Of a stretch of DNA of 64,000 nt, positions 15,262 through 32,192 are shown in pieces. Source of the DNA: Christensenella sp. UBA6094 (GTDB taxonomy: Bacteria; Bacillota; Clostridia; Christensenellales; UBA6094). Position 1 is the first letter of the stretch; each line of letters opens with the position of its first letter. The stretch covers positions 73,369-137,368 of the forward strand of contig DIWY01000003.1 in the NCBI GenBank assembly GCA_002435915.1. The letters are read 5' to 3'. Made by a program: the position numbers and the translations under genes. The notes under the pieces are model-generated. The model saw nothing but the letters and a program-made list of their open reading frames with translations, was not told the origin of the DNA and made no database searches.

Positions 15262-15441
15262 TTACTCAGATTTTGTTTCAGTATTATCTGCCAAAATGCT
15301 TTTTTGTGTCGAAATAGTATTAAGAGTATCTCCAAGTTGAGAAAAAATAGCTGCAGTAATCTCTAATTCATCTTCGGTCAAAATATTTGATATTGCAATT
15401 GCAAGAGCAGTTATGGCAGTTATCATTTCATTAGGGTTCAT
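15262..15441 (-). CDS. Small conserved helical protein of unknown function
   Basis: ATG at 15441 follows AGAGGTGA. The 59-aa product reads MNPNEMITAITALAIAISNILTEDELEITAAIFSQLGDTLNTI. It resembles a recurrent clostridial small-protein family (recalled from memory, unverified). Confidence 0.45.
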   Translation of the reverse strand: MNPNEMITAITALAIAISNILTEDELEITAAIFSQLGDTLNTISTQKSILADNTETKSE

Positions 15442-15542
15442 ATAAATTTCACCTCTTAGTAGTATATGAAAAGAATGAGATCGAGTGAGACAGAGAGGAT
15501 ATTTGAAAACAAGCAAAATAGTGTAATAAATAGAATTGCAAA

Positions 15543-15580
15543 TAAAAACAAACCAACTAAAATAGTTGGTTTGTTTTTTG
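15543..15580. terminator. Bidirectional intrinsic terminator downstream of the repressor gene
   Basis: AACAAACCAACTA pairs with TAGTTGGTTTGTT. The hairpin is flanked by an A-run and a T-run. Confidence 0.7.
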
Positions 15581-15625
15581 TATGTTTTTAGCAGTAAAAC
15601 TTAGAGCTTCAATAAGAAAATTATT

Positions 15626-16261
15626 TTATGGAATGTTGCGGTACATTTGTACAACTTTACCGTTTATATATACCGGAGTGCTTTCAGTCGATGTAACAAC
15701 TCTATCCGGATAACTAGCATTCAATGAAATAAGCCTATATGTATCACCATTGCGATATACTTTTTTAACTACGCCTTCTTCGCCGTTTATTATAACGACA
15801 GCAATATCACCATTCTCAACACATTCGTCTGTATCAATAAGCACAAAATCACCATCCAGTAGATATGGGGACATACTATCGCCTTTTACCAATAGAAAAA
15901 AGTTTCTGTTTAGTTTCGCATTATTAGCTTCTTGGTATCCTAGTAATTCTTGTTGCACCATGCCACCCTCTCCGGCCCTAACCGCACCATACACTGGGAT
16001 CATAATACGTTTACCCATAGGTATTCCGTTTTTTTCTGCCCAAGTAGTAGGGATAGGGTTGTCAGTTTCTCCCAACAAGAATTCTTTATTCACATCTAAA
16101 AATCCTGCAATTTTATCTAAATGTGAAATATAAGATTTAGATTTTCCTTTTTTCCAGTTATATAAAGTGCTCGTACTCATCTCTAACATTTCACATATTG
16201 CTTGCTCTTTAACACCTTTTTTTTCAAGAATATCGAGTATTCGTTTTAACGTTATATCCAT
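15626..16261 (-). CDS. CI/LexA-like repressor (XRE HTH + S24 peptidase domain)
   Basis: The start is taken at MDITLKRILDILEKKG (16261). N-terminal HTH. An Ala-Gly candidate cleavage site lies in VRAGEGG. The S24 catalytic Ser is in GDSMSP and a Lys in VVKKV. The ORF-track extension to 16381 is hydrophobic AT-rich read-through. Confidence 0.85.
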   Translation of the reverse strand: MDITLKRILDILEKKGVKEQAICEMLEMSTSTLYNWKKGKSKSYISHLDKIAGFLDVNKEFLLGETDNPIPTTWAEKNGIPMGKRIMIPVYGAVRAGEGGMVQQELLGYQEANNAKLNRNFFLLVKGDSMSPYLLDGDFVLIDTDECVENGDIAVVIINGEEGVVKKVYRNGDTYRLISLNASYPDRVVTSTESTPVYINGKVVQMYRNIP

Positions 16262-16301
16262 AATATCGCCGACCGTTCTAATAAATAATTGATAATAACT
16301 A

Positions 16302-16330
16302 TTGACAGTATCAAAATATTGATATATTAT
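16302..16330 (+). promoter_or_regulatory. Early rightward promoter with an overlapping operator-like inverted repeat
   Basis: TTGACA (16302-16307), a 17-nt spacer, then TATTAT (16325-16330). The spacer contains TATCAA-N4-TTGATA. Further TTGATA half-sites lie at about 16290 and 16390. Confidence 0.5.
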
Positions 16331-16471
16331 AAGTATAACCAATAATAATATAAATATACATGAAAAAACAAAAAATAGCAATATTTTGATACAATTGCTT
16401 CTGATTAGCGAAAATGAGCTAAAATAGCATATTTTAATTAGGGAAATTTGGACACAGAAGAGGATAATTTT

Positions 16472-16780
16472 ATGATTAGTTTTTTACAGACGATATTGGT
16501 TCTAATTATTTTAGGAGCTTGCGGCGGTTGCCTAGATAAGGATACTATGTCGATACCTACGATGCTAATTATCGTAGGTACAAGCATTTTATTATTAATC
16601 AATCTTGATAGATATTCAAAAAGTAGAAGACGATTATTTAAGCGATCTTTAAGGATAATTACAGATAAGAAAGTTATTATGACAAGGATAGTGGCAATTA
16701 AGAATATTTCTATGAAAAAAATGATATTAATTTATAAGACAAGGATTATGATCTTATTTCGAAAGGTGGTTATTAAATGA
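16472..16780 (+). CDS. Small membrane protein (two predicted TM helices), first gene of the early rightward transcript
   Basis: ATG at 16472 follows GAAGAGGA. Its stop overlaps the next start (ATGA), suggesting translational coupling. The C-terminal half is AT-rich low complexity, so its extent is uncertain. Confidence 0.4.
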   Translation: MISFLQTILVLIILGACGGCLDKDTMSIPTMLIIVGTSILLLINLDRYSKSRRRLFKRSLRIITDKKVIMTRIVAIKNISMKKMILIYKTRIMILFRKVVIK

Positions 16781-17289
16781 ATTTATATAATATTGATTCA
16801 AGAGTTCTAAACATACTTGAGCAGGATGAGGATTTTACTAAGTTTGATAAATGTAAGAGTATATTTATATTAAAACAACTGAATGCTCTTGATATAGCTG
16901 AAGAATATAAGGTTGAGAATATAGTTCTTTTTATCAAAAATTTGAATTCAGAGATAGATGCGCTAAAAGCTGAAGAAGACACTTTAAAAGCTAGAAGAGA
17001 AGAGAAAGAGCATATAATTAAAGTGTTAAAAAACTATTTAGAAGCGTGTATGTTGCATAATAATTACTCAAAGCTTGAAACACCTAGATATGGGATCTGT
17101 TTGAAAAACTCACAATGTGTAAATATTGTCGATGGAATAAGATTTTTTGAATATGCACGGATATCTAATAAATATTTGCTGAACAAAACTACTGAGATTG
17201 ATGAAGAAACAATAATTAACGATTTAAAAAATGGCGAAGAAATCCCAGGTGTTGAGTTAATACAAAAACATAAGCTGCTAATTAAATAA
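16777..17289 (+). CDS. Siphovirus Gp157-like protein
   Basis: 170 aa. The N-terminus MNLYNIDSRVLNILEQDED and the central coiled coil IKNLNSEIDALKAEEDTLKARREEKEH match the remembered Gp157 family pattern. Confidence 0.5.
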   Translation: MNLYNIDSRVLNILEQDEDFTKFDKCKSIFILKQLNALDIAEEYKVENIVLFIKNLNSEIDALKAEEDTLKARREEKEHIIKVLKNYLEACMLHNNYSKLETPRYGICLKNSQCVNIVDGIRFFEYARISNKYLLNKTTEIDEETIINDLKNGEEIPGVELIQKHKLLIK

Positions 17290-17346: not shown

Positions 17347-17778
17347 ATGGAAGCACTATATGATCAATACAAAAAAACTATTACTTATTACTTAAAAAAC
17401 TATAATACAATAAAATCATGTGAGGAACTGCGTAGAGAATCAATATTAGATTCTTGTGGTGGTTATCAAATGGATTTTTCAGGGATACGAGGCACAAAGA
17501 CAAGTGATATTACAGCATCAAAGGCTCTAAAACTAATAGAGCAAGATAAAGACGCTATTTGGCTTAAACTAATTGATATAGTGCTTAAAAACCATCCGAA
17601 TGAATTCGCTTCGAATTGCATAAAAGAAAAATATAATATAAATGGGTTCAAAGGCGGAGAAACACCTTATCTACACTTGTGCTCAAGGATTACGTTCCAA
17701 AGATATAAGAAAGAGATAATAACCGAGATTGCGCAAATGTATGTAAAATTGTCTGATACAATTGTGATACATTCTTGA
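17347..17778 (+). CDS. Putative phage late-gene transcriptional regulator (ArpU/RinA-like); weak call
   Basis: ATG at 17347 follows GGAGGG. The size (143 aa) and the position at the end of the early module, before the structural operon, fit this family. No strong motif was recognised. Confidence 0.3.
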   Translation: MEALYDQYKKTITYYLKNYNTIKSCEELRRESILDSCGGYQMDFSGIRGTKTSDITASKALKLIEQDKDAIWLKLIDIVLKNHPNEFASNCIKEKYNINGFKGGETPYLHLCSRITFQRYKKEIITEIAQMYVKLSDTIVIHS

Positions 17779-17873: not shown

Positions 17874-18194
17874 ATGAATAATTTTGTGTACATATGCAGT
17901 CAGCAAAGTAATGACATTAAAGAAAATAGTCGTAGAGGAGAATTGTACAAGCAGTACGTAATTGAAGAGGGGTATTATCCTGTATCACCAAGCGTAGATT
18001 TTTATTGGATAGAGAATGCAGATCCAAGAGAGAAGGCTGTGAGGGAGAATATGGAGCTAGAAACACTAGAGCAATGTGGTCAGATTTGGGTGTTTGGAGA
18101 TATTATTAATGAGGACATGCAAGTTAAGATTGATAGAGCAGTCGAATTAAAAATATCTGTGCAGTATATATCTGAATGGGAATGCGCTGTATAA
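17874..18194 (+). CDS. Phage protein with a nucleoside 2-deoxyribosyltransferase-like fold (DUF4406-like)
   Basis: The pattern VYICS...Y...EGYYPVSP...F...REKA...LEQCGQIWVFGD...MQVKIDRAVELKISVQYI matches a remembered prophage family. Confidence 0.4.
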   Translation: MNNFVYICSQQSNDIKENSRRGELYKQYVIEEGYYPVSPSVDFYWIENADPREKAVRENMELETLEQCGQIWVFGDIINEDMQVKIDRAVELKISVQYISEWECAV

Positions 18195-18258: not shown

Positions 18259-18284
18259 AGAACCTTACATAGGTTCTTTTTTTA
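18259..18284 (+). terminator. Intrinsic terminator closing the early module
   Basis: AGAACCT-TACAT-AGGTTCT hairpin followed by T7. Confidence 0.7.
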
Positions 18285-18375
18285 TTATAAATTGCCTACC
18301 GTGTCGGCGTTTAAATGCACGACTTACTTGTGGAAGATACCACGCTTAAAAACGCAAGTGAGAGAAAGGGTGTGT

Positions 18376-18864
18376 ATGGAATTTTTGAAAGACTTGTTTG
18401 GCGCAAGTGCACTAACTTACGAAGAGTTAGTAGCGAAAACTACAGAAAACGGTTTAAATGTTGTTGATCTTACTCAAGGCAAATACGTGAGTAAACAAAA
18501 GCACGATAAACTTTCAAGCCAAAGAGATGCGCTAAAGGCAAAATGTACAGAGCTTATAAATTCTATTGAAGGCGAAGGTGGCCTAAATAATAGGATAGAA
18601 GAATTAAGAGCTGCATTACAAGTCAAAGAAATAGCACTCATAAAAGCTGAAGATAAAAAAAAACAGCTTGAAGAGCTAGGTAGAGCATTGGAAAAAGACA
18701 GAATAAAACTATGGATACTAAAACCTAATAAGCTGGCAAGAAATTGTCATGGTAGAAAAGCCAAGACTAGTAAGCAGATATGCTATTTGCTTTGGTCAAA
18801 TAAGTGTACAAGCAAAAGTAATAGAAAATGCACAACGTTTCAGCTTATGAAAATTGATCGGTAG
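18376..18864 (+). pseudogene. Scaffold protein (phage GP20 family) remnant
   Basis: The N-terminal ~110 aa (MEFLKDLFG...LTQGKYVSKQKHDKL...coiled coil) look like a GP20 scaffold. After an A9 tract (18655-18663) the reading frame becomes an implausible basic, Cys-rich tail. About 150 bp of non-coding sequence follows. Confidence 0.5.
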
Positions 18865-19016: not shown

Positions 19017-19481
19017 ATGAGTGTACAAGTCGATAATCTAATAATTTTAAAGCTGGTAAATTATCTAAATAACAATGCCACTGAAATTGGCTTGCCTTGC
19101 ACTGTTACTAATAACGAGCATGCAGCAACAGGTCAGGCGTTATGGGTAAAAGCCAGAAAGAGCGACAGGATACAGCAAAATTATGTGGGGGGGAGTTACA
19201 GAGGCAGCTTAACTTTCGAGTTATTCTACCAGTATACTTCTCCGGAAGCGCAAACAGGACGCAGATCGATTATGGATTTGCCTTTTGCTGCATTATCAGA
19301 ATGGCTTGAGGACAAGCCAGATATTATACAGTTAGATAGAGAAACAGCAATAGAAATTAAAATGGACTCAAACGTTTATCAGGGTAAAGAAAGCGATGAT
19401 GGATTAACATTGCAGTATAAAGCGATTTTTGAATTAAGTTATACGAAAAATAGAGAAATATTTCACATAAACACTATTTAG
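19017..19481 (+). CDS. Tail terminator / head-tail joining-like protein ('minor capsid' family position)
   Basis: 154 aa, immediately upstream of the tube genes. The call rests mainly on position. Confidence 0.4.
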   Translation: MSVQVDNLIILKLVNYLNNNATEIGLPCTVTNNEHAATGQALWVKARKSDRIQQNYVGGSYRGSLTFELFYQYTSPEAQTGRRSIMDLPFAALSEWLEDKPDIIQLDRETAIEIKMDSNVYQGKESDDGLTLQYKAIFELSYTKNREIFHINTI

Positions 19482-19502
19482 AAATAAAAGGAGACTAAAA
19501 TT

Positions 19503-19964
19503 ATGAAAAAGAGATACGAAAGACTACATTACATGAATACAGCTACAGGCGAGACAGAATTATGGTCACTAATTAACGAAGGTATCGTAAGTTTTGACGA
19601 TGACCTCGCACCAAAAACGGAAACTAAACAGTATATAGCTGATAAAAGCGAACACGATGTTGTTCTAAGCTATAAGCCATCTTATAAATATTCTGCAGAA
19701 GTAGACAATGTTGATCCTGTTAACGTTAAATTATTCAATATTGGTGCAGACCAAGTTATTGGACAAACATGCGAAGTTATCACTGTTGACGTTTGGACTC
19801 TTGCAGACGGCGCATGCACAGCTAGAAAAGCAATTTATAATATTATCCCAAGCAAATCCGGTTCAGGAGATGCTGGCGGTTTCTTAAAGATGGAAGGCAC
19901 ATTATCACAAGTAGGCGAAATCATTAAAGGTACTTGGACAGTAGCAACAGCACAATTTGCATAA
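19503..19964 (+). CDS. Major tail (tube) protein, paralogue 1
   Basis: 153 aa, with a strong RBS (AAAGGAGA). Lies upstream of the chaperone-TMP module. About 60% identical to the next ORF. Confidence 0.65.
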   Translation: MKKRYERLHYMNTATGETELWSLINEGIVSFDDDLAPKTETKQYIADKSEHDVVLSYKPSYKYSAEVDNVDPVNVKLFNIGADQVIGQTCEVITVDVWTLADGACTARKAIYNIIPSKSGSGDAGGFLKMEGTLSQVGEIIKGTWTVATAQFA

Positions 19965-19982: not shown

Positions 19983-20474
19983 TTGTTAAAAAGATATGAT
20001 AGAGCACATTTTATGGACACAAAAGCAGAAGAGGCAACAACAGAAATATGGACACAGATTAATGATGGATTCGTTTCATTTGACGACGATCTGGCACCAA
20101 AAACAGAAACTAAACAGTATGTAGCTGATAAGAGCGAACATGATGTAATTCTAAGCTATAAACCAAGCTATAAGTATAACATGGAGCTTGATACAGACGA
20201 TGACGTTAACAAAAAGCTATACGAAATAGGTGCGGATCAACTAGTAGGCAAGACTTGTGACATATTATCAGTAGATATGTGGGATGGCACTCTAAACGGA
20301 ACTCAACAAATGGAGTATATCGCAAGAAAAGGTGAATACAATGTTATCCCAAGTAAAGCAGGCTCAGGCGATCCAGGTGGATTCATTAAAGTTGAAGGCA
20401 CGCTTGCTCAAGTTGGCGATCTTATCAAAGGTAAATGGAATACAGTAACAAAAGCATTCACAGCTAACGCATAA
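19983..20474 (+). CDS. Major tail (tube) protein, paralogue 2
   Basis: TTG at 19983 follows AAGGAGAG and gives (M)LKRYDRAHFMD, parallel to MKKRYERLHYMN of paralogue 1. The ORF track starts at GTG 19974. Confidence 0.65.
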   Translation: MLKRYDRAHFMDTKAEEATTEIWTQINDGFVSFDDDLAPKTETKQYVADKSEHDVILSYKPSYKYNMELDTDDDVNKKLYEIGADQLVGKTCDILSVDMWDGTLNGTQQMEYIARKGEYNVIPSKAGSGDPGGFIKVEGTLAQVGDLIKGKWNTVTKAFTANA

Positions 20475-20546: not shown

Positions 20547-20894
20547 ATGGTAGACGAGATTATTATAGGCAGGCAGGAAAGAATGACACGTGCAAGAGTA
20601 TTAGGTGAAGAGTTTGTTTACGATGTTACCGATACAAAAACCGTAAAGAAACTTGAAGAGCTATCTAAAATCCCCACAAACGACCTAGAAGGCACGATAA
20701 AATTCTGTAAAGAGTTTTTGACGCTAGTTTTCTGCAATGACCCAAGACCATTAAAGCTCATCGAAGAAGTAAACCAAACCTCTACACAGCTGTGGATAGA
20801 TACAATACTTCAGTTTACACCTCTTATTCAAAATCCACGTGTTAAAGCTATGGAAGAGCGTCTATCTAAGCTGAAGAAGGCGGCGGGCAAATAA
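20547..20894 (+). CDS. Tail assembly chaperone (gpG-like)
   Basis: 115 aa, between the tube and tape-measure genes. Called on position. Confidence 0.5.
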   Translation: MVDEIIIGRQERMTRARVLGEEFVYDVTDTKTVKKLEELSKIPTNDLEGTIKFCKEFLTLVFCNDPRPLKLIEEVNQTSTQLWIDTILQFTPLIQNPRVKAMEERLSKLKKAAGK

Positions 20895-21490
20895 TGAGCC
20901 TACTATATCCAGATTCCTTGCCAAAAAGCGTAATAGTTGATGACATAGAATATGAGATAAGATGGCAGTATTATGTCGTGTTGGAATTACTTAAGCTTTT
21001 TTCAGATAGAACCATGTCCGACAACGAAAAAGCGTATTTTATCTTTGATCTATTTTATGTTGGCATCGTCCCTGAAAACAAGGAGTATGCGCTTAAGGCA
21101 GTTACTGCGTTCATTGATGGTGGTAGCTGGGATAACGGCTACGAAAGCGAAGAGAAAAGCGATAGACCAGTAATGGATTGGAACATTGATGCGCCTTTTA
21201 TATGGGCGAGCATGAAGCAAACATATCCATTTTGGGATTGGTCGCAGGCGCACTGGTGGGAGTTTAAGGCGGCCTTTGATGCGTTGCCGGATACAGCTAA
21301 AATAAACGAGATAATAAGAATAAGGCTTAAAAGTATAACTGGAGATATGACCAGTGAACAGCGCAAGGCATGGGTAGCGCTTAAAAAACAATATGCATTG
21401 CCAGAGAGACCTGGCGAAAAATATACAGATCGGTCTGCACAAGATATAGAGGCGGACCTAAAAAGGCAGGCGATAGAAAATGGCGACTGA
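20894..21490 (+). CDS. Phage Gp15-family protein (gpT-like tail assembly protein)
   Basis: 198 aa. The start overlaps the previous stop (TAATG). The sequence LYPDSLPKSVIVDDIEYEIRWQYYVVLE...FDLFY resembles the A118-type Gp15 family. Confidence 0.5.
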   Translation: MSLLYPDSLPKSVIVDDIEYEIRWQYYVVLELLKLFSDRTMSDNEKAYFIFDLFYVGIVPENKEYALKAVTAFIDGGSWDNGYESEEKSDRPVMDWNIDAPFIWASMKQTYPFWDWSQAHWWEFKAAFDALPDTAKINEIIRIRLKSITGDMTSEQRKAWVALKKQYALPERPGEKYTDRSAQDIEADLKRQAIENGD

Positions 21491-22766
21491 CCCAAAAAAA
21501 ATTAGTAACGATGATTTTTTGATAATGGTAACAGCAAACAAATCAAATGAAACTATAGAAGGAATATCTACTATTGTAAATGTAGGGCTATCGGCAGCTG
21601 AAAAGGCTATATATGCAACGGCAGAGAAAACTACAGGGTTATTAAGTAAAGTTGTAAGCACAGTAGGCAAGATCGGTAACGTAGGAACCGGATTGGAAAT
21701 TATAGGAGACGCTCTTCAGAAAACTGATCTGTCAACACCAAACCTACAAAATGAATTTATATATATAGATGAGAAAACAGCTAATAAAATTAATGAGACT
21801 TCTAAAAGTTTAGGAAAATCACTCAGTGAAATGGGGAGAGTGCTTAATCCAATTTATTTGGCAGGAACTTTAGCTGAAGCATATGGTTACGATAAATTGG
21901 GTGAAGTATTAAAAAACAATAGTACTCCTGTAGAGATTCTCGCAACTGCTACAAAAATTGGCCAGGCAAATGGAGCAAGTTATACTTCTGAAGGAATTAA
22001 TGAGGAAGCTTTAGCACAAGCCAAAGAGCAAATGAGTAGTTATGTAAAACCAGACAATATACCGCTAACTGAAAATGATGTATTTGATAAAGCAAATAGT
22101 CAAGTGGCAACATATATGAACAGTAATACACACGAACTATCAATTGCTGATGATGCTAAAAAGAATGAAGCAGCTGTTGCAAAAGAAATAGAGGTTTTCA
22201 AAAATACTATTGCAAATACAGCAAACGTAATAGCACAGAGTGTTGCTACGAATAGCATTGCACCGGTAGTTAAAGCAATAACAAATGTTGCAAAAAAAGC
22301 AGTCAAAACAACGACAAAACCTCTTGGTTCAGTTGGAACAAAAAGCCAGATTGAAGAAGAATATAGTAAGAATATACAGGCTTATATGGAAGAAGCAAAA
22401 AAAATGCCTTACGCTACTGTTACAAGTGATGAGACAAAAAAAAGACTTGAAGATATTAGCATGAACAATCTGCTAACATATGATATGATCGGAAAATTTG
22501 CTGTCGGTACACCATATATTCCGAAAGACATGATAGCACTTGTTCATGAAGGCGAAATGATCGTACCTAAGAGCCAAAACCCATACGCAGGAGCTAACAG
22601 GATAAAGGCTGCGATGAATGCTAGTAGTGCAGATGTAGCAGCGGCAACTGCAAATAATACAAGTAATATAACATATACATTTAACAGCCCAAAGGCATTA
22701 GGCATGAGCGAGATACTGCGTGAGATGAGACTAGTAGAACAAAGAAAAGCATTGTTGGGGGTGTAA
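21480..22766 (+). CDS. Tape measure protein (short, 428 aa)
   Basis: Ala/Lys-rich helical sequence. The C-terminal motif VHEGEMIVPKSQNPY is typical of Gram-positive siphovirus tape measure proteins. Lies between the chaperones and Dit. Confidence 0.75.
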   Translation: MATDPKKISNDDFLIMVTANKSNETIEGISTIVNVGLSAAEKAIYATAEKTTGLLSKVVSTVGKIGNVGTGLEIIGDALQKTDLSTPNLQNEFIYIDEKTANKINETSKSLGKSLSEMGRVLNPIYLAGTLAEAYGYDKLGEVLKNNSTPVEILATATKIGQANGASYTSEGINEEALAQAKEQMSSYVKPDNIPLTENDVFDKANSQVATYMNSNTHELSIADDAKKNEAAVAKEIEVFKNTIANTANVIAQSVATNSIAPVVKAITNVAKKAVKTTTKPLGSVGTKSQIEEEYSKNIQAYMEEAKKMPYATVTSDETKKRLEDISMNNLLTYDMIGKFAVGTPYIPKDMIALVHEGEMIVPKSQNPYAGANRIKAAMNASSADVAAATANNTSNITYTFNSPKALGMSEILREMRLVEQRKALLGV

Positions 22767-22767
22767 C

Positions 22768-23631
22768 ATGCAAAGATTTATTTTTACAGATGATTTGGAA
22801 GGCAAAAACTCTCCAGGAACAAAAACAATTGAGCTGCTGCATGTTCTTGAAGTTAAAGGGTTAAACGGAATGCCTTCTACGATAAACGGCTCAAAGGCTT
22901 ATGGTAAGGATGGGATTACAGTATCATCGGTAACGATGGACGCCCGTCCTTTTTCTATACTTTTTGACATATTGGGCGAAAATTTTGAAGCGGCAGCAAC
23001 AGAAAGAAGAGCGTTAACCTCGTTCTTTGGAAATAAAAAACCAAAAAGATTTGAATACTCCAGAGACGATTTTAAAGTGTATCTAAAAGATGTATATCCA
23101 GCAGGAGTCTATGAAACAGGCGTAAACGAGAAACGAATACTAAACGGCACTATGCAATTTATTGCTACAAATCCATATTTAAAAAGAGACATTCCTTTTT
23201 CTTCTTTTGCTTTTGAAACCGCTGTTTTAGAGTACTTTGAGGATGGAATTGAGTTTCCTGACACAGGTCTTGAATATTCTACAGCTGAGACTTCAATCAC
23301 CGTTGCTAATAATGGCGACGAGATATCTCCTGCTTTGATACGGTTTCATGGACCTGCGAATAATCCTGAAGTAATAAATACTACAACGAATCAAAAAATG
23401 AAAGTGCTGATAGAAATTGATTCAAATGAATATTTAGAAGTGTCAAGCGAAACTGGAAGAGTAGACAAAATTGACTCTGAAAATGTAAGGCATAATGCAT
23501 TTGATAGTATTTCAGATGATAGTGAATTCATTAATCTTGCGGTTGGTGAAAACATATTTAATTTCAATTCTGCAGGTGGCGGAACAGGATATTTAGAAGT
23601 TGGCGGGGTGGAGTATTATGCAGGTATATAG
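22768..23631 (+). CDS. Distal tail protein (Dit, siphovirus tail component)
   Basis: 287 aa, immediately after the tape measure gene. Start 1 nt after the tape-measure stop codon. Confidence 0.65.
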   Translation: MQRFIFTDDLEGKNSPGTKTIELLHVLEVKGLNGMPSTINGSKAYGKDGITVSSVTMDARPFSILFDILGENFEAAATERRALTSFFGNKKPKRFEYSRDDFKVYLKDVYPAGVYETGVNEKRILNGTMQFIATNPYLKRDIPFSSFAFETAVLEYFEDGIEFPDTGLEYSTAETSITVANNGDEISPALIRFHGPANNPEVINTTTNQKMKVLIEIDSNEYLEVSSETGRVDKIDSENVRHNAFDSISDDSEFINLAVGENIFNFNSAGGGTGYLEVGGVEYYAGI

Positions 23632-25204: not shown

Positions 25205-25834
25205 ATGGCAATAACAGGTTTTCCTTATGTGTCTGTCGAAGGCGACAGAAAAGTAACGGCAGCCAATGAGGCTACAAGAATAGATTTAATAGCAGGTAGC
25301 GGTGTAATATTTGACGAACCAACATCATTTGCCTGCGCAAAAATTTCAGATATGATGCAAGTAACAGTTCAACCAGGATCCGCACTTATTGCTGGACATG
25401 GGATTATGTCTGATGCAGTAGAAACTGTAACAATTGAAGCTGCAGATTTAAATAACCCTCGTATAGATATAATAGCGCTTGAAAGCAACTCAAATACTGG
25501 TATACGTGGTGGACGTGTGGTCGTAGTCAAAGGTATAGCAGCAACAACTCCAATTGAGCCTGCTCTTGTAACAACTGCAGGAATAAGCCAGATAAAACTG
25601 GCTACACTTTTAATTCCAGCAACAGCAACAACATTCGCGCCTGCAACTCTAACCGACGCAAGAACGAAAGGCACAGGTAAACATACACACCCAAGTTTAA
25701 CTTCTGTAAACATAACAGAGGCAATAGCTCCAGGTACAGCAAGAGTTGCTAATATCGTATTTGGTACGGGCAACGCTCCTACAATAGATAGCACGATGCC
25801 ACAAGGCACAATATATATAAAATATTTACCATAA
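25205..25834 (+). CDS. Receptor-binding / tail-fibre protein, paralogue 1 (divergent N-terminal module, short C-terminus)
   Basis: 209 aa. The N-terminal ~160 aa are colinear with the three downstream RBPs (FPYVSVEGDRKVTA...RIDIIALESN...GKHTH) at roughly 55-60% identity. Confidence 0.65.
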   Translation: MAITGFPYVSVEGDRKVTAANEATRIDLIAGSGVIFDEPTSFACAKISDMMQVTVQPGSALIAGHGIMSDAVETVTIEAADLNNPRIDIIALESNSNTGIRGGRVVVVKGIAATTPIEPALVTTAGISQIKLATLLIPATATTFAPATLTDARTKGTGKHTHPSLTSVNITEAIAPGTARVANIVFGTGNAPTIDSTMPQGTIYIKYLP

Positions 25835-25846: not shown

Positions 25847-27019
25847 ATGCCCACTTTTAGATCGAACACATCCCCAAATACACTTATAACAGTCAACATG
25901 TCAAATTATAGAAATGGACCTGAAGCTCCTTCTACAATTGCTTATGCAACTGTCAATTGGAGTGTAACAACAAGTAGTGCTACGTCGTGTTCAAGCAGTA
26001 GAACACTTCAAATTTTTAACGCATGGGGCACTTTGCTTGGAAGTGGTCAAATTAAAGGAGCTGAATATTGGGGGCAAAGCACAACACATTCAGGCAGTTT
26101 TACAATTTCATTTAACCCAGGTCCAGACGTGTATTATGATTTTGCATGGCCTATTTATATACAAGTACCTGGAGATTCTTCAGATCCTTGCACTTGGATG
26201 AATAGATCATACTGCACAAACTTCGATCAGTATTGGCCAGTATACTGGAGCTATGCTACTGCGCCATCAAGTTTGTGGATGAATCCAAACTGTTATGAAA
26301 ACTCAATAAGATTGGAATGGAGTGGTGCAAATTCAGGAATAAATAACGGTATAAGTACTTACCACTGTTATTACCAATATTCTGATGATGGGTACAACTG
26401 GTCTGGAGATATTGGAATAGACTCTTCAGGAGCTACTTATGTTGACGTAAACACTTCAACATGGCCAAGAGGAAGATACCTTAGATTTCAAGTATATTCC
26501 ATTGCAAGTAGAAATAACTCACTTTCGTATCTTGCAGGTAATGCACAAAAAAATAGAGTTCCTAACACCATATCAGAAAAACCAACAGTAGATAAATCTG
26601 TATATATTGTTGGAGATCATATTCAGCTATCGTTCACACCGAACTCGACACCTGATCCTGATGGGAATATAGCTGGCTACGAAGTTGCTATGAAAAGCGA
26701 TAAAGATGTATGGTATGGTTCACCAACAAATGTCGGCGAAAAAACAACACCAAATTCTCCATACGTAATAGATATTAATACAGCAACATGGGATCCAGGT
26801 AAACGATGGAAGTTCTATGTGAGAGGATACGATTCGTTTGGAGTACGAGGTGCATGGTCGCCAGCAAGTGATTTAGTGATGATAGGTGTTGCGCTGAAAA
26901 TTAATGTTGGAAATGCATTTAAAGACAGCGCTGAGGCACTAATAAATGTAAATGGACAATGGAAACAAATCGCAGAAATGAACATAAATATAAATGGAGC
27001 TTGGAAGAACTTTACGTAA
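25847..27019 (+). CDS. Tail-fibre-associated protein with two FN3-like domains
   Basis: 390 aa. Two segments have the FN3-like pattern (WSGANSG...YHCYYQYSDDG..W and GNIAGYEVAMKSD...RGYDSFGVRGAWSP). RBS GGAGGGAG. Confidence 0.5.
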   Translation: MPTFRSNTSPNTLITVNMSNYRNGPEAPSTIAYATVNWSVTTSSATSCSSSRTLQIFNAWGTLLGSGQIKGAEYWGQSTTHSGSFTISFNPGPDVYYDFAWPIYIQVPGDSSDPCTWMNRSYCTNFDQYWPVYWSYATAPSSLWMNPNCYENSIRLEWSGANSGINNGISTYHCYYQYSDDGYNWSGDIGIDSSGATYVDVNTSTWPRGRYLRFQVYSIASRNNSLSYLAGNAQKNRVPNTISEKPTVDKSVYIVGDHIQLSFTPNSTPDPDGNIAGYEVAMKSDKDVWYGSPTNVGEKTTPNSPYVIDINTATWDPGKRWKFYVRGYDSFGVRGAWSPASDLVMIGVALKINVGNAFKDSAEALINVNGQWKQIAEMNININGAWKNFT

Positions 27020-27189: not shown

Positions 27190-27700
27190 AAAAAACACAA
27201 GTGAGGTATGAGCATGGCAATAAAGAGTTACCCATACTCATCAGTAGATGGTGATAGAAAAATAACAGCCTCAGACGAGGCAAAAAGGTTAGATCTAATA
27301 GCAGGTAGCGGAATAATATTCGACGTTCCTACGTCATTCGAGTGCTCAAAATTGGCAGGAACTATGAACATAAACGTTGCAGCAGGCTCAGCGCTAGTAG
27401 CAGGGCATGGGATTATATCAGATGCTACAGAGACAGTCGAAATATCTGCAAGTGATTCGGCATACTCCCGTATAGACGTTATAGCGCTCGAGAGCAATAC
27501 AAATACAGATATAAGAGCTGGGCGGGTTGTAGTAATAAAAGGAACAGCAGCAGCGACTCCTATAGAACCGACGCTAAGTACGGAAGCAGGAGTGACGCAG
27601 ATAAAGCTGGCTAAAATACTTATCCCAGCAAGTATATCCAGCCTAAGCACAGCGACACTTACAGATCTAAGGGCAGCATCAGTGGGTAAACATACGCATA
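27190..27700 (+). repeat. RBP N-terminal module, direct repeat copy 1 of 3 (~0.5 kb)
   Basis: Includes the RBS region CACAAGTGAGGTAT. Bases 27364-27525 are 100% identical to 28470-28631 (162 nt). Confidence 0.9.
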
Positions 27701-28113
27701 CGCAGGAACAGATGCATTTTACAGATATAATGAGTGCTGTATATCCAGTAGGAAGTATTTATATGAGTACGTCTTCTGCAAATCCTAACACTTTGTTTGG
27801 TGTAGGAACATGGGTAGCTTGGGGAACGGGCAGAGTGCCAGTTGGTATCGACACTAGCCAAAGTGAATTTAATACCGTTGGAAAAACTGGCGGAGCAAAA
27901 ACACATACCCTTGTTACTGGTGAAATGCCTAATCATGGTCATACTGGTGTTGGTATTTTCGGAACAAGCGCAGGCAGTACTATGCGAAATCAAGTAATAC
28001 AAGGGAGTGCCAATTGGGATGGGTATACTGGCGTATATAATACAGGTGGAGATTTGCCACATAATAACTTACAACCATATGTAACATGTTATATGTGGAA
28101 AAGAACAATATAA
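27214..28113 (+). CDS. Receptor-binding / tail-fibre protein, paralogue 2 (C-terminal PVGSIY-type head)
   Basis: The start MAIKSYPY at 27214 is parallel to paralogues 3 and 4. The C-terminus carries VYPVGSIYMS...NPNTLFGVGTW...GKTGGAKTHTLVTGEMPNHGH. Confidence 0.75.
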   Translation: MAIKSYPYSSVDGDRKITASDEAKRLDLIAGSGIIFDVPTSFECSKLAGTMNINVAAGSALVAGHGIISDATETVEISASDSAYSRIDVIALESNTNTDIRAGRVVVIKGTAAATPIEPTLSTEAGVTQIKLAKILIPASISSLSTATLTDLRAASVGKHTHTQEQMHFTDIMSAVYPVGSIYMSTSSANPNTLFGVGTWVAWGTGRVPVGIDTSQSEFNTVGKTGGAKTHTLVTGEMPNHGHTGVGIFGTSAGSTMRNQVIQGSANWDGYTGVYNTGGDLPHNNLQPYVTCYMWKRTI

Positions 28114-28304: not shown

Positions 28305-28806
28305 AGAAGAGGTGTAAGCATGGCAATAAAGAGTTACCCATACTCATCAGTAGATGGTGATAGAAAAATAACAGCCTCGGATGAGGCAAAGAGGTTAGAT
28401 CTAATAGCAGACAGCGGAATAATATTCGACGTTCCTACGTCATTCGAGTGCTCAAAAGTAACAGGCACAATGAACATAAACGTTGCAGCAGGCTCAGCGC
28501 TAGTAGCAGGGCATGGGATTATATCAGATGCTACAGAGACAGTCGAAATATCTGCAAGTGATTCGGCATACTCCCGTATAGACGTTATAGCGCTCGAGAG
28601 CAATACAAATACAGATATAAGAGCTGGGCGGATTGTAGTAATAAAAGGCACAGCAGCGGCTACACCAGTAGAACCAGCGCTAAGTACGGAAGCAGGCGTG
28701 GCGCAGATAAAGCTAGCTAAAATATTGATCCCAGCAAGTGTGTCGAGTTTAAGCACAGCAACACTTACAGAAATGCGTTCAGCATCCGTTGGAAAGCATA
28801 AACATT
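28305..28806 (+). repeat. RBP N-terminal module, direct repeat copy 2 of 3
   Basis: About 96% nucleotide identity to copy 1 over the first ~330 nt (by eye). Divergence begins after the GKH(T/K/N)H junction. Confidence 0.9.
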
Positions 28807-29312
28807 CGAAGGCTCAAATAACTGGTGTAAGTAGTTGGAATGGTATTATTGGCGAAATTAAAGCTTTTGCAGGATCGGCAGCTCCAACAGGTACTTTACT
28901 TTGTGATGGATCGGCAGTGAGCAGAACAACGTATTCTGCTCTTTTTGCTGTAATAGGCACTAATTACGGAGCTGGGAATGGTAGCACAACATTTAACCTG
29001 CCAAATATGAAGGGTAAAGTGCCAGTTGGGTATAACTCGGCTGAAACAGAGTTTAATGTGCTCGGGAAAACAGGTGGGGAGAAGACGCATATAAATACAA
29101 TTGCAGAAATGCCAAATCATACTCATGCAATTTCAACTACTGTACATTCGGAGGAAGGAACGCATGACTGGGAATTTGTAGTTGGCACTGGTGCTGGTAC
29201 AAGAGCTTTAACATTATTTAAATCTATCACTGCAGCATATACAGGTGGTGGAGGATCACATAATAACTTGCAACCATACGTAGCTGTTAATTACATAATT
29301 GTCTATGCTTGA
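28320..29312 (+). CDS. Receptor-binding / tail-fibre protein, paralogue 3 (C-terminal tail-collar domain)
   Basis: The C-terminus carries FAGSAAPTGTLLCDGSAVSRTTYSALFAVIGTNYGAGNGSTTFNLPNMKGK, the collar-domain signature. Confidence 0.8.
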   Translation: MAIKSYPYSSVDGDRKITASDEAKRLDLIADSGIIFDVPTSFECSKVTGTMNINVAAGSALVAGHGIISDATETVEISASDSAYSRIDVIALESNTNTDIRAGRIVVIKGTAAATPVEPALSTEAGVAQIKLAKILIPASVSSLSTATLTEMRSASVGKHKHSKAQITGVSSWNGIIGEIKAFAGSAAPTGTLLCDGSAVSRTTYSALFAVIGTNYGAGNGSTTFNLPNMKGKVPVGYNSAETEFNVLGKTGGEKTHINTIAEMPNHTHAISTTVHSEEGTHDWEFVVGTGAGTRALTLFKSITAAYTGGGGSHNNLQPYVAVNYIIVYA

Positions 29313-29387: not shown

Positions 29388-29898
29388 ATAAAACACAAGT
29401 GAGGTATAAGTATGGCAATAAAGAGTTATCCATATTCATCAGTAGATGGTGATAGAAAAATAACAGCCTCAGACGAGGCAAAGAGATTAGATTTAATAGC
29501 AGGTAGCGGAATAATATTCGACGTTTCTACGTCATTCGAGTGTTCAAAAGTAGCTGGAACTATGAACGTGAATGTATCGGCAGGTTCTGCGTTAGTAGCT
29601 GGGCATGCAATCATATCGGATTCTACAGAGACAGTCGAAATATCTGCAAGTGATTCGACATACTCCCGTATAGACGTTATAGCGCTCAAGAGCAATATAA
29701 ATACAGATATAAGAGCTGGGCGTATTGTAGTAATAAAAGGCACAGCAGCAGCAGCAATTCCAGTTGAGCCAGCGTTAAGCACTGAAGCAGGAGTCGTGCA
29801 GATAAAGCTAGCTAAGATACTGATCCCAGCAAGTGTAGCAAGTTTAAGCACAGCAACACTTACTGACTTGCGCACAGCATCAGTGGGTAAGCATAATC
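29388..29898 (+). repeat. RBP N-terminal module, direct repeat copy 3 of 3
   Basis: Roughly 90% identical to copies 1 and 2 (by eye). Shares the upstream AAACACAAGTGAGGTAT with copy 1. Confidence 0.85.
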
Positions 29899-30899
29899 AT
29901 TCGCAAGCTCATATTACAGATATGGTTAGTAATATGTATCAGAACGGTTTCGTTAATGGTGATATGCAAGTGTGGCAGATGGGGACAAGTATTGTACCAT
30001 CTGCAGCTAATAAATACTATACAGCGGATATGTGGAAGGCATATAGAGATGCTTATGATGCGAACCTCCATGTCGCACAAACCACTTACAATGGAAGTAT
30101 ACCTACTCATACATTACGAACTACAAGGGGTACAGGCGACACAGTAGTTACGCCTATTAGAATTGGGTACAATTTTACAACAGAAGAAAGTAAAAAGTAT
30201 AGGTTGAAAAAAGTAACAGTTTCATTTGTTTCAAAAATTGGTGCAGACGCGGCAGGAACATATGCCGCATATATAAACGCAGGAACAGGAACCGACCAAG
30301 ATATTATAACGGGATTCACTGGACAATCTATCCTAGCAACACTTTCGTTTACACCTACTACAACCAATCAAGTATTTACATTTACAACAAGCGCAGTTGT
30401 TGCGTTAGCGGTAAATCAATTAGCTTTTGTAGTTAAATACACACCATCCACAGCTACAGCAGGAGCAAACGACTATATAGAAATAACAAACTGCAATTGG
30501 AGTGCAACAGATTACTATGTGCTATTTTCACCAAAGAGTTTCTCTCAAGAGCTGAGAGATTGCATGATTTATTATGAAAAAAGTTTTTCATATGCCACTG
30601 CTATTGGCGCAAACACAGCGTATGGAATGTATAATCGTAGTGGAAGTAGTAATGCTCTTAACAATGTGCGTATTCATGTACCGTTTAAGGTTAATAAGAG
30701 GGCAACGCCAACCGTTGTGTTTTATACAACAACAGGTACAGTAGGCTCATGGAAATATGAACGCAACGGAGAAACAAGCACAGTTACGCCTGTTAATGAT
30801 TATACAAACGAAAATGCAATAGTCGCCTATATGGGCGTTGGGGCAGCATGGGTGGTGGCACTAGTACAAGGACACTGGGTGGCAGATGCACGAATATAA
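29412..30899 (+). CDS. Receptor-binding / tail-fibre protein, paralogue 4 (long unrelated ~330-aa C-terminal domain)
   Basis: Shares the N-terminal module. The C-terminus (NGFVNGDMQVWQMG...ADMW...) is unrelated to those of paralogues 2 and 3. Confidence 0.75.
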   Translation: MAIKSYPYSSVDGDRKITASDEAKRLDLIAGSGIIFDVSTSFECSKVAGTMNVNVSAGSALVAGHAIISDSTETVEISASDSTYSRIDVIALKSNINTDIRAGRIVVIKGTAAAAIPVEPALSTEAGVVQIKLAKILIPASVASLSTATLTDLRTASVGKHNHSQAHITDMVSNMYQNGFVNGDMQVWQMGTSIVPSAANKYYTADMWKAYRDAYDANLHVAQTTYNGSIPTHTLRTTRGTGDTVVTPIRIGYNFTTEESKKYRLKKVTVSFVSKIGADAAGTYAAYINAGTGTDQDIITGFTGQSILATLSFTPTTTNQVFTFTTSAVVALAVNQLAFVVKYTPSTATAGANDYIEITNCNWSATDYYVLFSPKSFSQELRDCMIYYEKSFSYATAIGANTAYGMYNRSGSSNALNNVRIHVPFKVNKRATPTVVFYTTTGTVGSWKYERNGETSTVTPVNDYTNENAIVAYMGVGAAWVVALVQGHWVADARI

Positions 30900-30912
30900 A
30901 AGGGGTGAGTAA

Positions 30913-31593
30913 ATGTTCGAATATATTATAGATAAAGAGCTAGTGTTTAAGGGCACCAAAAAGAGATTCACAAAATCTCCACAAAGAATTGTGCTACATC
31001 ATAGTGGCGCAAGTGCAGACCAAACAGTGGAGCAAATACATAACTATCATATAAATCATAATGGATGGCTAGGAATTGGTTACAATGCCCTTGTTGATAA
31101 AAACGGAAACGTGTTTTGGAGCAGAGGAATTGAATACGTTGGAGCACATTGTAAAGGATACAATGAGACAAGTGTTGGCATATGTGCTATTGGTAATATG
31201 GAGACGGGTCAAATGCCTGAGAAGCAGAAAACAAGCATAATTAAGCTTGTGCAAGATATAAAAACGTTCTACCCATCAATTACTACAGTCTGTGGACATA
31301 AAGAACTTGCGGCTACTGATTGCCCAGGTAAGAATTATCCACTTGAGGAAATCAAGAATTCTAAAGCACAAGCGATAGTTAAAGAGACTAAGCAGACATT
31401 AAAATTTGGTAGCCGTGGCAATGAAGTAAAAACGTTGCAACAAATGCTCATAAGCCATGGAGTTAACCCTGGTAAAGTTGATGGGATATTCGGAAAAAAC
31501 ACAGAGAAAGCAGTAAAAGAATTTCAAACTAAGGAAGGCATAGTGGTGGACGGTATAGTGGGCAAAATTTCATGGGGCAGATTGGGGGCGTAA
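30913..31593 (+). CDS. Endolysin: N-acetylmuramoyl-L-alanine amidase (Amidase_2/PGRP) with a C-terminal PG_binding_1 domain
   Basis: RIVLHHSGAS...GYNALVDKNG...GAHCKGYN...CGHKELAATDCPG in the catalytic part. The C-terminus carries LKFGSRGNEVKTLQQML...VDGIFGKNTEKAVKEFQ. Confidence 0.85.
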   Translation: MFEYIIDKELVFKGTKKRFTKSPQRIVLHHSGASADQTVEQIHNYHINHNGWLGIGYNALVDKNGNVFWSRGIEYVGAHCKGYNETSVGICAIGNMETGQMPEKQKTSIIKLVQDIKTFYPSITTVCGHKELAATDCPGKNYPLEEIKNSKAQAIVKETKQTLKFGSRGNEVKTLQQMLISHGVNPGKVDGIFGKNTEKAVKEFQTKEGIVVDGIVGKISWGRLGA

Positions 31594-31599
31594 CGCCAT

Positions 31600-31893
31600 A
31601 TGGTCGATAACATGGGTGAAAGGGTCAGGGCAGTCGAGGAGGGTCTTAAAGCTACAAAGGAAAGGCTTATTAAGGCTGAAGACATTATAGACACTATCCA
31701 TAAATTAACGATGAGCATTGACAGAATAGCAGGACAAGTTGATATGCAGAGCAAAGACATAGCAAATATGTCAGAAAGAATTAGTAGCATTGAGGATATA
31801 CCTAGAAGACGATGGAACGAAGTCGTAAAGACGCTGATCGCTTTGGGATTAGGTATGCTACTCGAATATTATTTAAAAAGAGGGGCAATTTAA
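31600..31893 (+). CDS. XhlA-like lysis-associated membrane protein
   Basis: 97 aa. N-terminal coiled coil plus a single C-terminal TM (VVKTLIALGLGMLLEYYL), as in Bacillus PBSX XhlA. Confidence 0.6.
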   Translation: MVDNMGERVRAVEEGLKATKERLIKAEDIIDTIHKLTMSIDRIAGQVDMQSKDIANMSERISSIEDIPRRRWNEVVKTLIALGLGMLLEYYLKRGAI

Positions 31894-32154
31894 ATGGATT
31901 TAATGTCGTATATAGTGAGTGAGGGGCTTATTTTGATACCGGTCTTATACTTGATCGGTATGGCTATAAAATCGACACCAAATATGCCAGATTGGTTGAT
32001 ACCATATATTTTAGGTGCGCTTGGGATAGTGGGTGCAGTTGCAATTTTGGGCATTAGTGTAAATTCGGTAATTCAAGGGATACTGGTAGCAGGAGCGGCA
32101 GTATACACTAACCAGACAATTAAGCAGATACAGCTCAAAGATACAGAGGAGTAA
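31894..32154 (+). CDS. Holin (two TM helices)
   Basis: 86 aa. Two hydrophobic helices plus a charged C-terminus. Abuts xhlA with no intergenic gap. Confidence 0.7.
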   Translation: MDLMSYIVSEGLILIPVLYLIGMAIKSTPNMPDWLIPYILGALGIVGAVAILGISVNSVIQGILVAGAAVYTNQTIKQIQLKDTEE

Positions 32155-32162
32155 GTAAAAAA

Positions 32163-32192
32163 GCGAGGCGACGTAAGTTGCCTCGCTTTTTT
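32163..32192 (+). terminator. Intrinsic terminator at the right end of the tail/lysis cluster
   Basis: GCGAGGC (32163-32169) pairs with GCCTCGC (32180-32186), followed by T6. Confidence 0.75.

Follow-up and report, generated by a model that had tools for sequence, protein, structure and literature searches.

A head-less siphovirus-type tail and lysis cluster of uncultured Clostridia is probably a domesticated F-type tailocin

We analyzed a stretch of 64,000 nucleotides (nt) from Christensenella sp. UBA6094 (assembly GCA_002435915.1, contig DIWY01000003.1, positions 73,369 to 137,368 of the forward strand), which is referred to here as the window. Sequence analysis indicates that a head-less siphovirus-type tail cluster at 15262-32194 is probably a domesticated F-type tailocin, for which a role as a bacteriocin is presumed. 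An S24 repressor comes first in the cluster, followed by a small set of early genes and a terminator. Next are a full non-contractile tail module and four receptor-binding protein (RBP) genes with a common anchor, and the last genes encode an amidase, an XhlA-like protein and a holin. An original prediction, made from the DNA letters, had listed these parts, and open reading frame (ORF) listing and profile searches located all of them at or near where it had placed them. The tail set is a complete non-contractile one, and no ORF matches a sheath family in Pfam or PHROGs. The cluster is retained intact in four diverged relatives, and for this reason it is very probably a domesticated tail bacteriocin and not a dying prophage.

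The relatives were found through the tube protein. Its family is rare, with 20 clusters among 5.8 billion proteins. We looked up the contigs of its members, and they fall into two groups. In the head-less group the tube is 74-81% identical to that of the window, and in the phage group it is at most 69% identical. The head-less group is made up of the window (L001) and three other lineages, L002, L081 and L096. Common to all four is a layout of DUF6774, S24 repressor, a protein of 136-143 amino acids (aa), DUF7768, a scaffold relic, the tube terminator, one or two tubes, two chaperones, a short tape measure protein (TMP), Dit, Tal and RBPs. Lysis genes are present wherever a head-less contig extends far enough, and the early region differs between lineages. 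The head-less tubes are monophyletic in a neighbor-joining tree, which carries no support values. Exact window proteins also recur in NCBI, JGI, ENA and Logan assemblies, including those of bioreactor and enrichment samples. The clade is represented in the bioreactor and enrichment metagenomes ERZ27315036, ERZ27275379 and JGI 3300000591.

The gene neighborhood, the low dN/dS values given below and the monophyly of the head-less tubes indicate that this is a fixed chromosomal locus under selection, and not a mobile prophage. No integrase is found in the element. In the window, it is flanked upstream by GerM, RNase PH and Ham1, a tRNA-Arg/His/Gln/Lys array (13347-13690) and an MFS transporter, and downstream by a ClC channel. 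When the same locus was compared across related genomes, as the original prediction had advised, the L002 element was found at the same site. It follows GerM, RNase PH, Ham1 and an identical tRNA Arg-His-Gln-Lys array, and precedes a ClC-family gene. The latter may be a paralog, since it is only 37% identical to that of the window over the 99 residues retrieved. The L096 element again has an MFS gene on its left side, as the window element does. In the window, the MFS gene lies between the two copies of a direct repeat of 67 nt (13693-13759 and 15179-15245), which are 75% identical and contain a terminator-like hairpin. One copy directly follows tRNA-Lys and the other directly precedes the element. 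The window and L096 have the MFS gene and L002 does not, which suggests that a gene was inserted or lost in the interval from the tRNA array to the element. Among 185,579 GTDB species representatives, the closest Ham1 is only 52% identical (Clostridium sp., Anaerovoracaceae and Alkaliphilus metagenome-assembled genomes). Together with GerM, a sporulation gene, this suggests placement in Clostridia at the level of the class.

Genes of the element match or exceed the flanking host genes in conservation. The host proteins are 63-79% identical: between the window and L002, the values are 70% for GerM, 79% for RNase PH and 76% for Ham1, and the MFS proteins of the window and L096 are 63% identical. 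In the element, identities between lineages are 86-87% for the repressor, 81-88% for the first chaperone, 73-84% for the tube terminator, 74-81% for the tube and 75-77% for the Gp15 chaperone. They are 74% for the amidase, 81% for the XhlA-like protein, 77% for the holin, 62-73% for Dit and 61-62% for Tal. Most genes have dN/dS values of 0.03-0.17 between the window and the other lineages, at dS that is saturated (above 1; Nei-Gojobori). The values are 0.04-0.07 for the repressor and 0.03-0.05 for the first chaperone. In the closer pair L002 and L081, dS is 0.19-0.71 and dN/dS is 0.04-0.17 for the genes of regulation, tube terminator and chaperones. The open ORFs, saturated dS, low dN/dS and lack of an integrase together make neutral decay a poor fit, and follow the pattern of a domesticated element. 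The original prediction had argued for a domesticated F-type tailocin over random decay on the grounds that every tail and lysis ORF is full length and that the head module is cleanly missing. The comparison agrees with it. The same head-less cluster is found in three more diverged lineages, its tail and lysis ORFs are uninterrupted in all four, and dN/dS lies far below 1. The findings named in advance as refuting this view did not arise: the analysis revealed neither cryptic head genes nor frameshifts in tail genes, and none of the close relatives has heads.

The head module is missing from the cluster. Among the ORFs, we found no match to terminase, portal, capsid, connector, integrase or replication families in Pfam or PHROGs. 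Permissive tblastn searches of the 64-kb window, L002 and L081 with the head-module proteins of three related phages (L006, L082 and L084) returned only scaffold residues 1 to ~110, at 18376-18700, besides the tube terminator gene, which was also among the queries. A match of the L082 portal to the antisense strand of tube 1 was judged spurious (E = 5e-4, 25% identity, 47 aa). The lack of these gene families had been claimed from the sequence, and the family searches and the tblastn searches with the head proteins of three phages bear it out. The same tblastn searches, with the scaffolds of L006, L082 and L084, confirmed that a truncated scaffold fragment is the sole head-related sequence.

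This scaffold-protein relic (18376..18864, + strand) is the first ORF of the late operon and matches phrog_194 and, below the cut-off, Phage_scaffold (E = 9e-5). Its N-terminal ~110 residues, which represent the N-terminal third of the scaffold gene, are homologous to phage scaffolds, and its C-terminus is unrelated to them. In all four lineages, an open ORF of 121-162 aa heads the late operon despite saturated synonymous divergence, and the C-termini are unrelated. The position of the ORF is conserved in the relatives (L002 9004-9369, L081 3352-3717 and L096 4637-5092). The scaffold N-terminus is a scar common to the four lineages, which points to one ancestral set of deletions. With dN/dS of 0.2-0.5, selection on the relic is relaxed, and it could have been co-opted, be retained for translational coupling or be a slowly decaying scar.

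The phage group shows what the cluster has lost. Wherever upstream sequence was retrieved for a locus with a tube at most 69% identical, this sequence contains head or connector genes, and the locus is part of a complete phage. The group includes L006, L082, L084, L089-L094 and L097; the sequence of L088 is not long enough for a judgment. The loci that extend sufficiently far encode TerL, an SPP1-type portal, a minor capsid protein, a full scaffold, a major capsid protein and 4-5 connector genes directly upstream of the tube terminator gene. Four metagenomic siphophages of this group, L006, L082, L084 and L089, are similar to the window cluster in that the tube terminator, tube, chaperones, Dit, N-terminus of Tal and RBP anchor are homologous and arranged in the same order. 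Their tubes are 66-67% and their Gp15 proteins 46-51% identical to those of the window. Unlike the cluster, they have TerS/TerL, portal, minor capsid (Minor_capsid_2), full scaffold, major capsid and 4-5 connectors, together with a single tube gene and a long TMP with strongly hydrophobic segments. A megablast search with the whole element found no match among 50,697 phage records. The tube protein had only three remote matches in the phage collection, with 28-35% identity, and no cultured relative there. No relative was found when the tube alignment was searched against the 185,579 GTDB species representatives, and scans of metagenomes and IMG/VR added only head-bearing phages or short fragments.

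The tail module appears intact, as had been predicted. Pfam and PHROG matches, the tube fold and, for the first chaperone, gene position identify the tube terminator, two tubes, two chaperones, the 428-aa TMP, Dit and a Tal with a collar domain. Profile HMM searches of the ORFs confirmed the tail roles of the core genes and found no cryptic head genes. The first protein of the module is the tail completion protein or tube terminator (19017..19481, + strand; phrog_3266 ‘tail completion’, E = 3.7e-5). It is 40-43% identical to the product of the gene directly upstream of the tube in complete phages. Tail tube protein 1 (19503..19964, + strand) matches phrog_3099 and phrog_820. Its AF2 model has a mean pLDDT of 80, and the best Foldseek matches are the tubes of 80alpha, SaPI1, NF5, lambda and monocin. 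Tail tube protein 2 (19983..20474, + strand; phrog_3099) is a paralog of tube 1 and is 61% identical to it. Two tube genes are found in the window and in L081 (4347-4808 and 4865-5326), and one in L002, L096 and the related complete phages. The clade of tube 2 is also represented in L081. Since the head-less clade holds two paralogous sub-clades, the tube duplication predates the split of the lineages.

The two tail assembly chaperones are encoded downstream of the tubes. The first (20547..20894, + strand) has no family match and was assigned by its position, which is the same in the head-less elements and the phages. The second (20894..21490, + strand) belongs to the Gp15 family (Phage_Gp15, PF06854, E = 2.5e-29; phrog_706). 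They are followed by the TMP, by Dit (22768..23631, + strand), which matches Sipho_tail, SPP1_Dit and phrog_33, and by Tal, the baseplate hub (23618..25189, + strand). Tal matches Sipho_Gp37 (E = 4e-40) and phrog_538, and its C-terminal region consists of Collar (E = 3e-20) and a Gp10_C head domain. Searches of PDB sequences with Dit, the tube terminator and the TMP returned nothing useful.

The TMP (21480..22766, + strand) matches phrog_25966 in its C-terminal motif. Equivalent proteins are encoded at 11557-13158 in L002 (533 aa), 6334-7761 in L081 (475 aa) and 7182-8495 in L096 (437 aa). At 428-533 aa, the head-less TMPs are about half as long as those of the complete phages (909-1004 aa where the TMP gene is complete). 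Their C-terminal ~110 aa are 70-74% conserved among the head-less lineages. The proteins as a whole are poorly alignable, and their dN/dS of 0.41-0.49 is relaxed, as it is otherwise only in the scaffold relic. In monocin, a 622-aa TMP corresponds to a particle of 103 nm with 22 tube rings (PMC11830787). Scaling from monocin, the 428-aa TMP would specify a particle of ~65-70 nm, and the TMPs of the related phages tails of ~150 nm.

The tip of the particle is predicted to carry several RBPs. In the window, a ~300-nt 5’ segment is found in four tandem copies at 25183-29930, the last three of which are 90-94% identical in DNA. The encoded proteins of 209, 301, 330 and 495 aa share an N-terminal anchor of ~160 aa, and their C-termini differ. 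The 209-aa protein (25205..25834, + strand) consists of the anchor, with PHROG anchor matches, and a short C-terminus, and is 69% identical to its L081 counterpart. Receptor-binding protein 1 (301 aa; 27208..28113, + strand) has the anchor and Gp10_C (E = 1e-31), and belongs to repeat family D1. Receptor-binding protein 2 (330 aa; 28320..29312, + strand) has the anchor, Collar (E = 4e-23) and Gp10_C, with repeats of both the D1 and the D2 family. Receptor-binding protein 3 (495 aa; 29412..30899, + strand) has the anchor and a C-terminal domain of ~330 aa; it matches only anchor PHROGs, and no PDB entry. It is 41% identical to the single 496-aa RBP of L002, which has one gene in place of the cassette. 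The original prediction had likewise listed four RBP genes. A 390-aa tail-associated protein encoded among them (25847..27019, + strand) fits no family and has no PDB match. It is 67% identical to an L081 gene product and 43-44% identical to that of the same-position gene in phages L084 and L089.

The anchor segments at 25205-25680, 27208-27680, 28320-28790 and 29412-29880 match PHROGs 1220, 9534, 5339 and 3398, which are labeled ‘head protein’ or ‘virion structural protein’. We judged the head label to be a mislabel, because the anchor domain follows Tal in the complete phages. This order indicates that it is likely a tail-fiber anchor. Tandem RBP genes on one anchor are a natural scaffold for retargeting.

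The cluster has its own lysis cassette, and profile matches support the predicted roles of its three genes. The endolysin (30913..31593, + strand) is an N-acetylmuramoyl-L-alanine amidase with a peptidoglycan-binding domain (Amidase_2 and PG_binding_1). An XhlA-like lysis accessory protein (31600..31893, + strand; phrog_937 ‘hemolysin’, E = 2e-8) has a coiled coil and a C-terminal transmembrane helix, and is 81% identical in L002. The holin (31894..32154, + strand) belongs to the Hol44 family (Phage_holin_5_2, E = 4e-21). A strong intrinsic terminator ends the late operon (32155..32194, + strand), with an 18-pair stem that includes 8 G-C pairs, followed by a T-run. In L002, the holin is followed by two extra genes at 18548-20028 (392 aa and 95 aa) that have no Pfam match and are not found in the window. 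A role as cargo, in immunity or as accessory genes is conceivable for them.

The regulatory region is located at the other end of the cluster. The repressor (15626..16261, - strand) is a 211-aa protein of the CI/LexA type with an N-terminal helix-turn-helix (HTH_26) and an S24 autocleavage domain (Peptidase_S24, E = 1.8e-24). A 251-aa ORF starting with TTG was rejected as too long. In every relative, and in the gene call for an identical contig, the protein begins at M41 of that ORF. The alignment of the four lineages shows that the cleavage site Ala96-Gly97 (VRAGEGG), Ser129 (GDSMSP) and Lys166 (VVKKV) are all kept. These residues align with A84-G85, S119 and K156 of what we take to be the E. 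coli LexA sequence. By its sequence, the repressor combines the features of the LexA/CI type: an Ala-Gly site and a Ser/Lys dyad in Peptidase_S24, fused to the N-terminal helix-turn-helix. Next to it is the gene of a DUF6774 protein (15262..15516, - strand; 59-84 aa depending on the start codon; Pfam DUF6774, E = 1.5e-13). This gene adjoins the repressor in all four head-less lineages; it is contained in L002, L003 and L096, and L081 has a weak tblastn match.

The early control region (16289..16392, + strand) is an intergenic block common to all four lineages. A promoter scan identified a sigma-70-like promoter in it at 16302-16330, TTGACA-17-TATTAT, with 11/12 consensus matches. TTGATA/TATCAA half-sites overlap this promoter and are candidate operators. 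Four small ORFs follow. The first encodes 102 aa with two hydrophobic helices (16472..16780, + strand) and has no match in Pfam, PHROG or NCBIfam. It is lineage-specific, with a sole partial match in L096, and may not be functional. The second encodes a Gp157 or Mu Gam-like early protein (16777..17289, + strand; Sipho_Gp157, E = 2.5e-29; phrog_253). It is a phage early-gene leftover of the window lineage, and was not found in L002, L081 or L096. Only the last two early genes are kept in all four lineages. They encode a 143-aa protein (17347..17778, + strand) and a DUF7768 protein (17874..18194, + strand; DUF7768, E = 1.7e-17), the latter with a weak likeness to phrog_355 (nucleoside 2-deoxyribosyltransferase-like). 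A terminator scan found an intrinsic terminator between the early genes and the late operon (18259..18277, + strand), which consists of a hairpin and a T-run. The hairpin is preserved in the four lineages through compensatory changes.

The 143-aa protein is a candidate activator of the late operon. Its sequence suggests a remote member of the LtrB/DUF1492 type, with a likeness to sigma region 4. DUF1492 is the LtrB activator family, which in phages of Gram-positive bacteria acts at a promoter upstream of terS to activate the late operon (PMC3753634). Close homologs of the 143-aa protein are found in head-less elements only. A full HMMER search with its family profile identified 9 remote relatives. 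One of them, P0153 (profile E = 6.6e-4), scores 28.4 bits on Pfam DUF1492, above the gathering cut-off of 21.5, and others have weak matches to Sigma70_ECF or DUF1492. Comparison of the family with the remote relatives by hhalign gave 99.2% probability. Since the family profile had itself recruited these relatives, this is not independent evidence. The structural model has weak Foldseek matches to phage transcriptional activators and to sigma70_r4 and DUF1492 proteins. An HMM search of the ORFs of the related phages placed the family in head-less loci only, and the phage loci hold little sequence upstream of terS.

The gene of the 143-aa protein is the last but one early gene ahead of a constrained non-coding block of 87 nt (18286..18372, + strand). 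Between lineages, the block shows 78-85% identity, and 63 of its 87 positions are invariant. Third codon positions of the neighboring tube terminator gene are 46-55% identical. Among all loci fetched, the block motif CTTGTGGAAGAYACCACG is confined to the head-less ones. This conservation marks the block as a candidate Ltr-dependent late promoter or leader. Located directly upstream of the scaffold relic, it is likely the late promoter, and would be the former promoter of terS. We infer that two segments were deleted separately, one extending from terS to the end of the minor capsid gene and the other from the capsid to the connectors, which left an Ltr-dependent terS promoter driving the tail and lysis genes.

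We propose the following working of the system, in which induction, the pairing of the Ltr-type activator with its promoter, particle assembly and bactericidal action are all deduced from the genes. In most cells, the S24 repressor would keep the early promoter at 16302-16330 shut. Upon DNA damage, activated RecA (RecA*) would promote self-cleavage of the repressor at Ala96-Gly97, and the early transcript would then supply the 143-aa LtrB-like activator. The activator is expected to fire the late promoter at 18286-18372, directly past the early terminator. A single late transcript covering 18376-32154 would provide the tail, with TMP, chaperones, Dit and Tal forming an initiation complex. The tube may then polymerize to roughly 65-70 nm and be capped by the terminator protein, with Tal and up to four anchor-sharing RBPs at the tip. 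Finally, the holin, XhlA-like protein and amidase would lyse the producer, and the head-less particles released would bind and kill related cells with a matching receptor.

Several alternatives to a tailocin were weighed. A siphophage beside tRNA-Lys may have lost its head module and the rest may be drifting without function, and a number of features would fit such a remnant. The scaffold fragment with its scrambled C-terminus is a typical deletion scar, a leftover Gp157 early gene remains in the window lineage only, the early region is variable between lineages, and a site beside a tRNA array is typical of prophages. Decay is nevertheless highly improbable, and the selection data already go most of the way toward refuting it. 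Some 15 ORFs of the tail, lysis and regulatory sets are open in every lineage for which they were retrieved, with dN/dS of 0.03-0.17 at saturated synonymous sites, in hosts with housekeeping proteins 63-79% identical. Non-coding control regions are conserved far beyond third-codon-position identity, and a frameshifted tail gene was not seen in any lineage. We consider it just as improbable that the cluster is one part of a split-locus defective phage, or of a system like a gene transfer agent (GTA), in which other parts of the genome would encode heads or packaging. Dispersed loci are known for gene transfer agents, and the DNA inspected is 64 kb of the genome. Arguing against a split locus, there is no head homolog besides the scaffold relic in the 64-kb window, L002 and L081, the genes for head-tail connectors are deleted from the cluster, and the TMP is halved compared to that of the ancestral phage type. 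A satellite, a phage-inducible chromosomal island (PICI) or a GTA was rejected as an identity for the element; it has no integrase, replication, packaging or capsid gene, and its locus is fixed.

A third alternative, a domesticated tail-only particle with a role other than killing, is unlikely but the most probable of the three. Such a particle could serve altruistic lysis that releases DNA or public goods, provide tails for the capsids of another element, such as a capsid-forming satellite, or function in adhesion or signaling. Selection is demonstrated and its target is not. The TMP has lost the strongly hydrophobic segments of phage TMPs, and the mechanism of killing by F-type particles is unresolved even in the cases studied (PMC11830787). 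On the other hand, the genes connecting capsid and tube terminator, including Minor_capsid_2, are all gone, which makes capsid docking unlikely. The expanded and diversifying RBP array and the fast-evolving Dit, Tal and RBP genes fit an arms race over targeting. The characterized head-less clusters of siphovirus-type tail and lysis genes that we reviewed, monocin and efagin, are all bactericidal or growth-inhibiting. The same is true of F-pyocin.

The interpretation as an F-type tailocin has its own weak points. Selection shows that the cluster has a use but does not identify this use as killing, and no immunity or resistance determinant is evident in the cluster. The maximum Kyte-Doolittle value over 19 residues is 1.16-1.71 in the head-less TMPs, compared to 2.11-2.84 in those of the phages, and a TMP so poor in hydrophobic segments is unexpected if killing requires its insertion into the membrane. 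The proposed activator has no direct match in Pfam, NCBIfam or PHROG, and its model has a mean pLDDT of only 68. The absence of head genes holds within the 64-kb window. The sample consists of four head-less lineages on few contigs, and L081 is without an informative flank.

If the cluster is an F-type tailocin, it may also be an old one, although we put this fuller account forward only tentatively. In it, the lineage belongs to uncultured Clostridia and spans species with housekeeping proteins 63-79% identical, and it still displays the transition from siphophage to tailocin. The traces would be the scaffold scar, a captured Ltr-dependent terS promoter, a halved TMP without membrane-spanning segments, an early tube duplication and a growing RBP cassette. 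Because related complete phages and a deletion scar are both available, the steps from phage to tailocin, namely head loss, promoter reuse, TMP shortening and tube duplication, can be read directly. The short, hydrophobic-poor TMP also provides a testable handle on killing by non-contractile particles. If the particles kill, a TMP without transmembrane-like segments would argue that F-type killing needs no membrane channel formed by the tape measure.

Other features of the window lie outside the cluster. Downstream of the ClC gene, four tandem ORFs of ~180 aa are found at 33791-36156. Two of them were scanned, and both are members of the AhpC/TSA peroxiredoxin family. Ordinary regulatory RNAs of the host include a T-box leader at 55063-55300 (- strand, 111 bits) and a TPP riboswitch at 50347-50455 (- strand, 65 bits).

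Few F-type tailocins have been described: the F-pyocins, the monocins, the efagins and one recent clostridial case. The locus in the window is probably a further, independently derived F-type tailocin, of a kind of system that is already known. It extends this short list by a separate lineage from uncultured, strictly anaerobic Clostridia. What it contributes is evolutionary, and it is a well-supported new example that does not overturn current understanding.

The clostridial case corrects the original prediction, which had tentatively held that F-type tailocins were uncharacterized in Clostridia. In September 2026, a study of commercial collagenase by EM (electron microscopy), mass spectrometry and cryo-EM described an F-type tailocin from Clostridium histolyticum (bioRxiv 10.64898/2026.06.17.733002). 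It is the only characterized clostridial F-type tailocin found in the literature searched. Like the window cluster, the C. histolyticum locus (NCTC503_02168-02181) is a head-less non-contractile cluster in Clostridia with terminator, tube, TMP, Dit, hub, RBP and lysis genes. Its particles have been seen by EM and mass spectrometry, whereas the system in the window is known from its genes alone. The profile of the window tube family matches the C. histolyticum tailocin tube (PDB 11OK, A0A4U9RSA4) with E = 8.7e-9 over 136 of 156 profile positions, and this was the only solved structure found by sequence. The study itself confirms what the PDB entry is. Searches with single sequences found no link between the two tube families. 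The relation is distant, at the level of the superfamily, and the two do not belong to the same lineage.

Both loci have a second tube gene. The C. histolyticum paralogs are 88% identical, which indicates a recent duplication, whereas those of the window are 61% identical and older than the split of the lineages. The duplications are thus independent. The nearest named relative of the C. histolyticum tube, from C. gasigenes (69% identical), is part of a complete prophage that also encodes a Gp15 chaperone and a TMP of 896 aa, and the wider tube family of both systems includes complete prophages with a Gp15 chaperone and a TMP of ~900 aa. Given the position of the C. gasigenes relative in a complete Gp15 prophage, both tailocins go back to one broad type of siphophage, from which they arose separately.

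The original prediction had also called the cluster monocin-like, which holds for its architecture and not for its sequence. Monocin, encoded by the ftb cluster of Listeria monocytogenes, likewise combines a regulatory region, a TP901-1/A118-style non-contractile tail and holin-lysin genes, and has no heads (PMC11830787). Its ftbD-ftbP genes have been expressed in a heterologous host (PMC11830787). Its TMP is also short. The tube folds are similar (8qhs, 9j1j and 9j1k; E about 3e-4). Searches of PDB sequences with the tube profile, Tal, Dit, tube terminator and TMP returned no monocin chain, so that the tube similarity is at the level of the fold alone. With the A118-type tube model NF047353, the window tube scores 22.9 bits, below the cut-off of 27 bits. 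Unlike in monocin, the repressor in the window bears its own S24 domain, and the two hosts are of different classes.

Efagin of Enterococcus faecalis and the F-type pyocins of Pseudomonas aeruginosa are encoded by head-less clusters for non-contractile tails. These clusters are fixed in the chromosome across the species, and they include regulatory genes, lysis genes and a receptor-binding domain that is variable. The window cluster is similar to them in these respects, and their origins are independent of it. Efagin particles measure ~160 nm, compared to the ~65-70 nm predicted for the cluster. The efagin authors note that evolutionary intermediates are missing. The window cluster, in contrast, has related complete phages, with 66-69% tube identity, and a scaffold scar.

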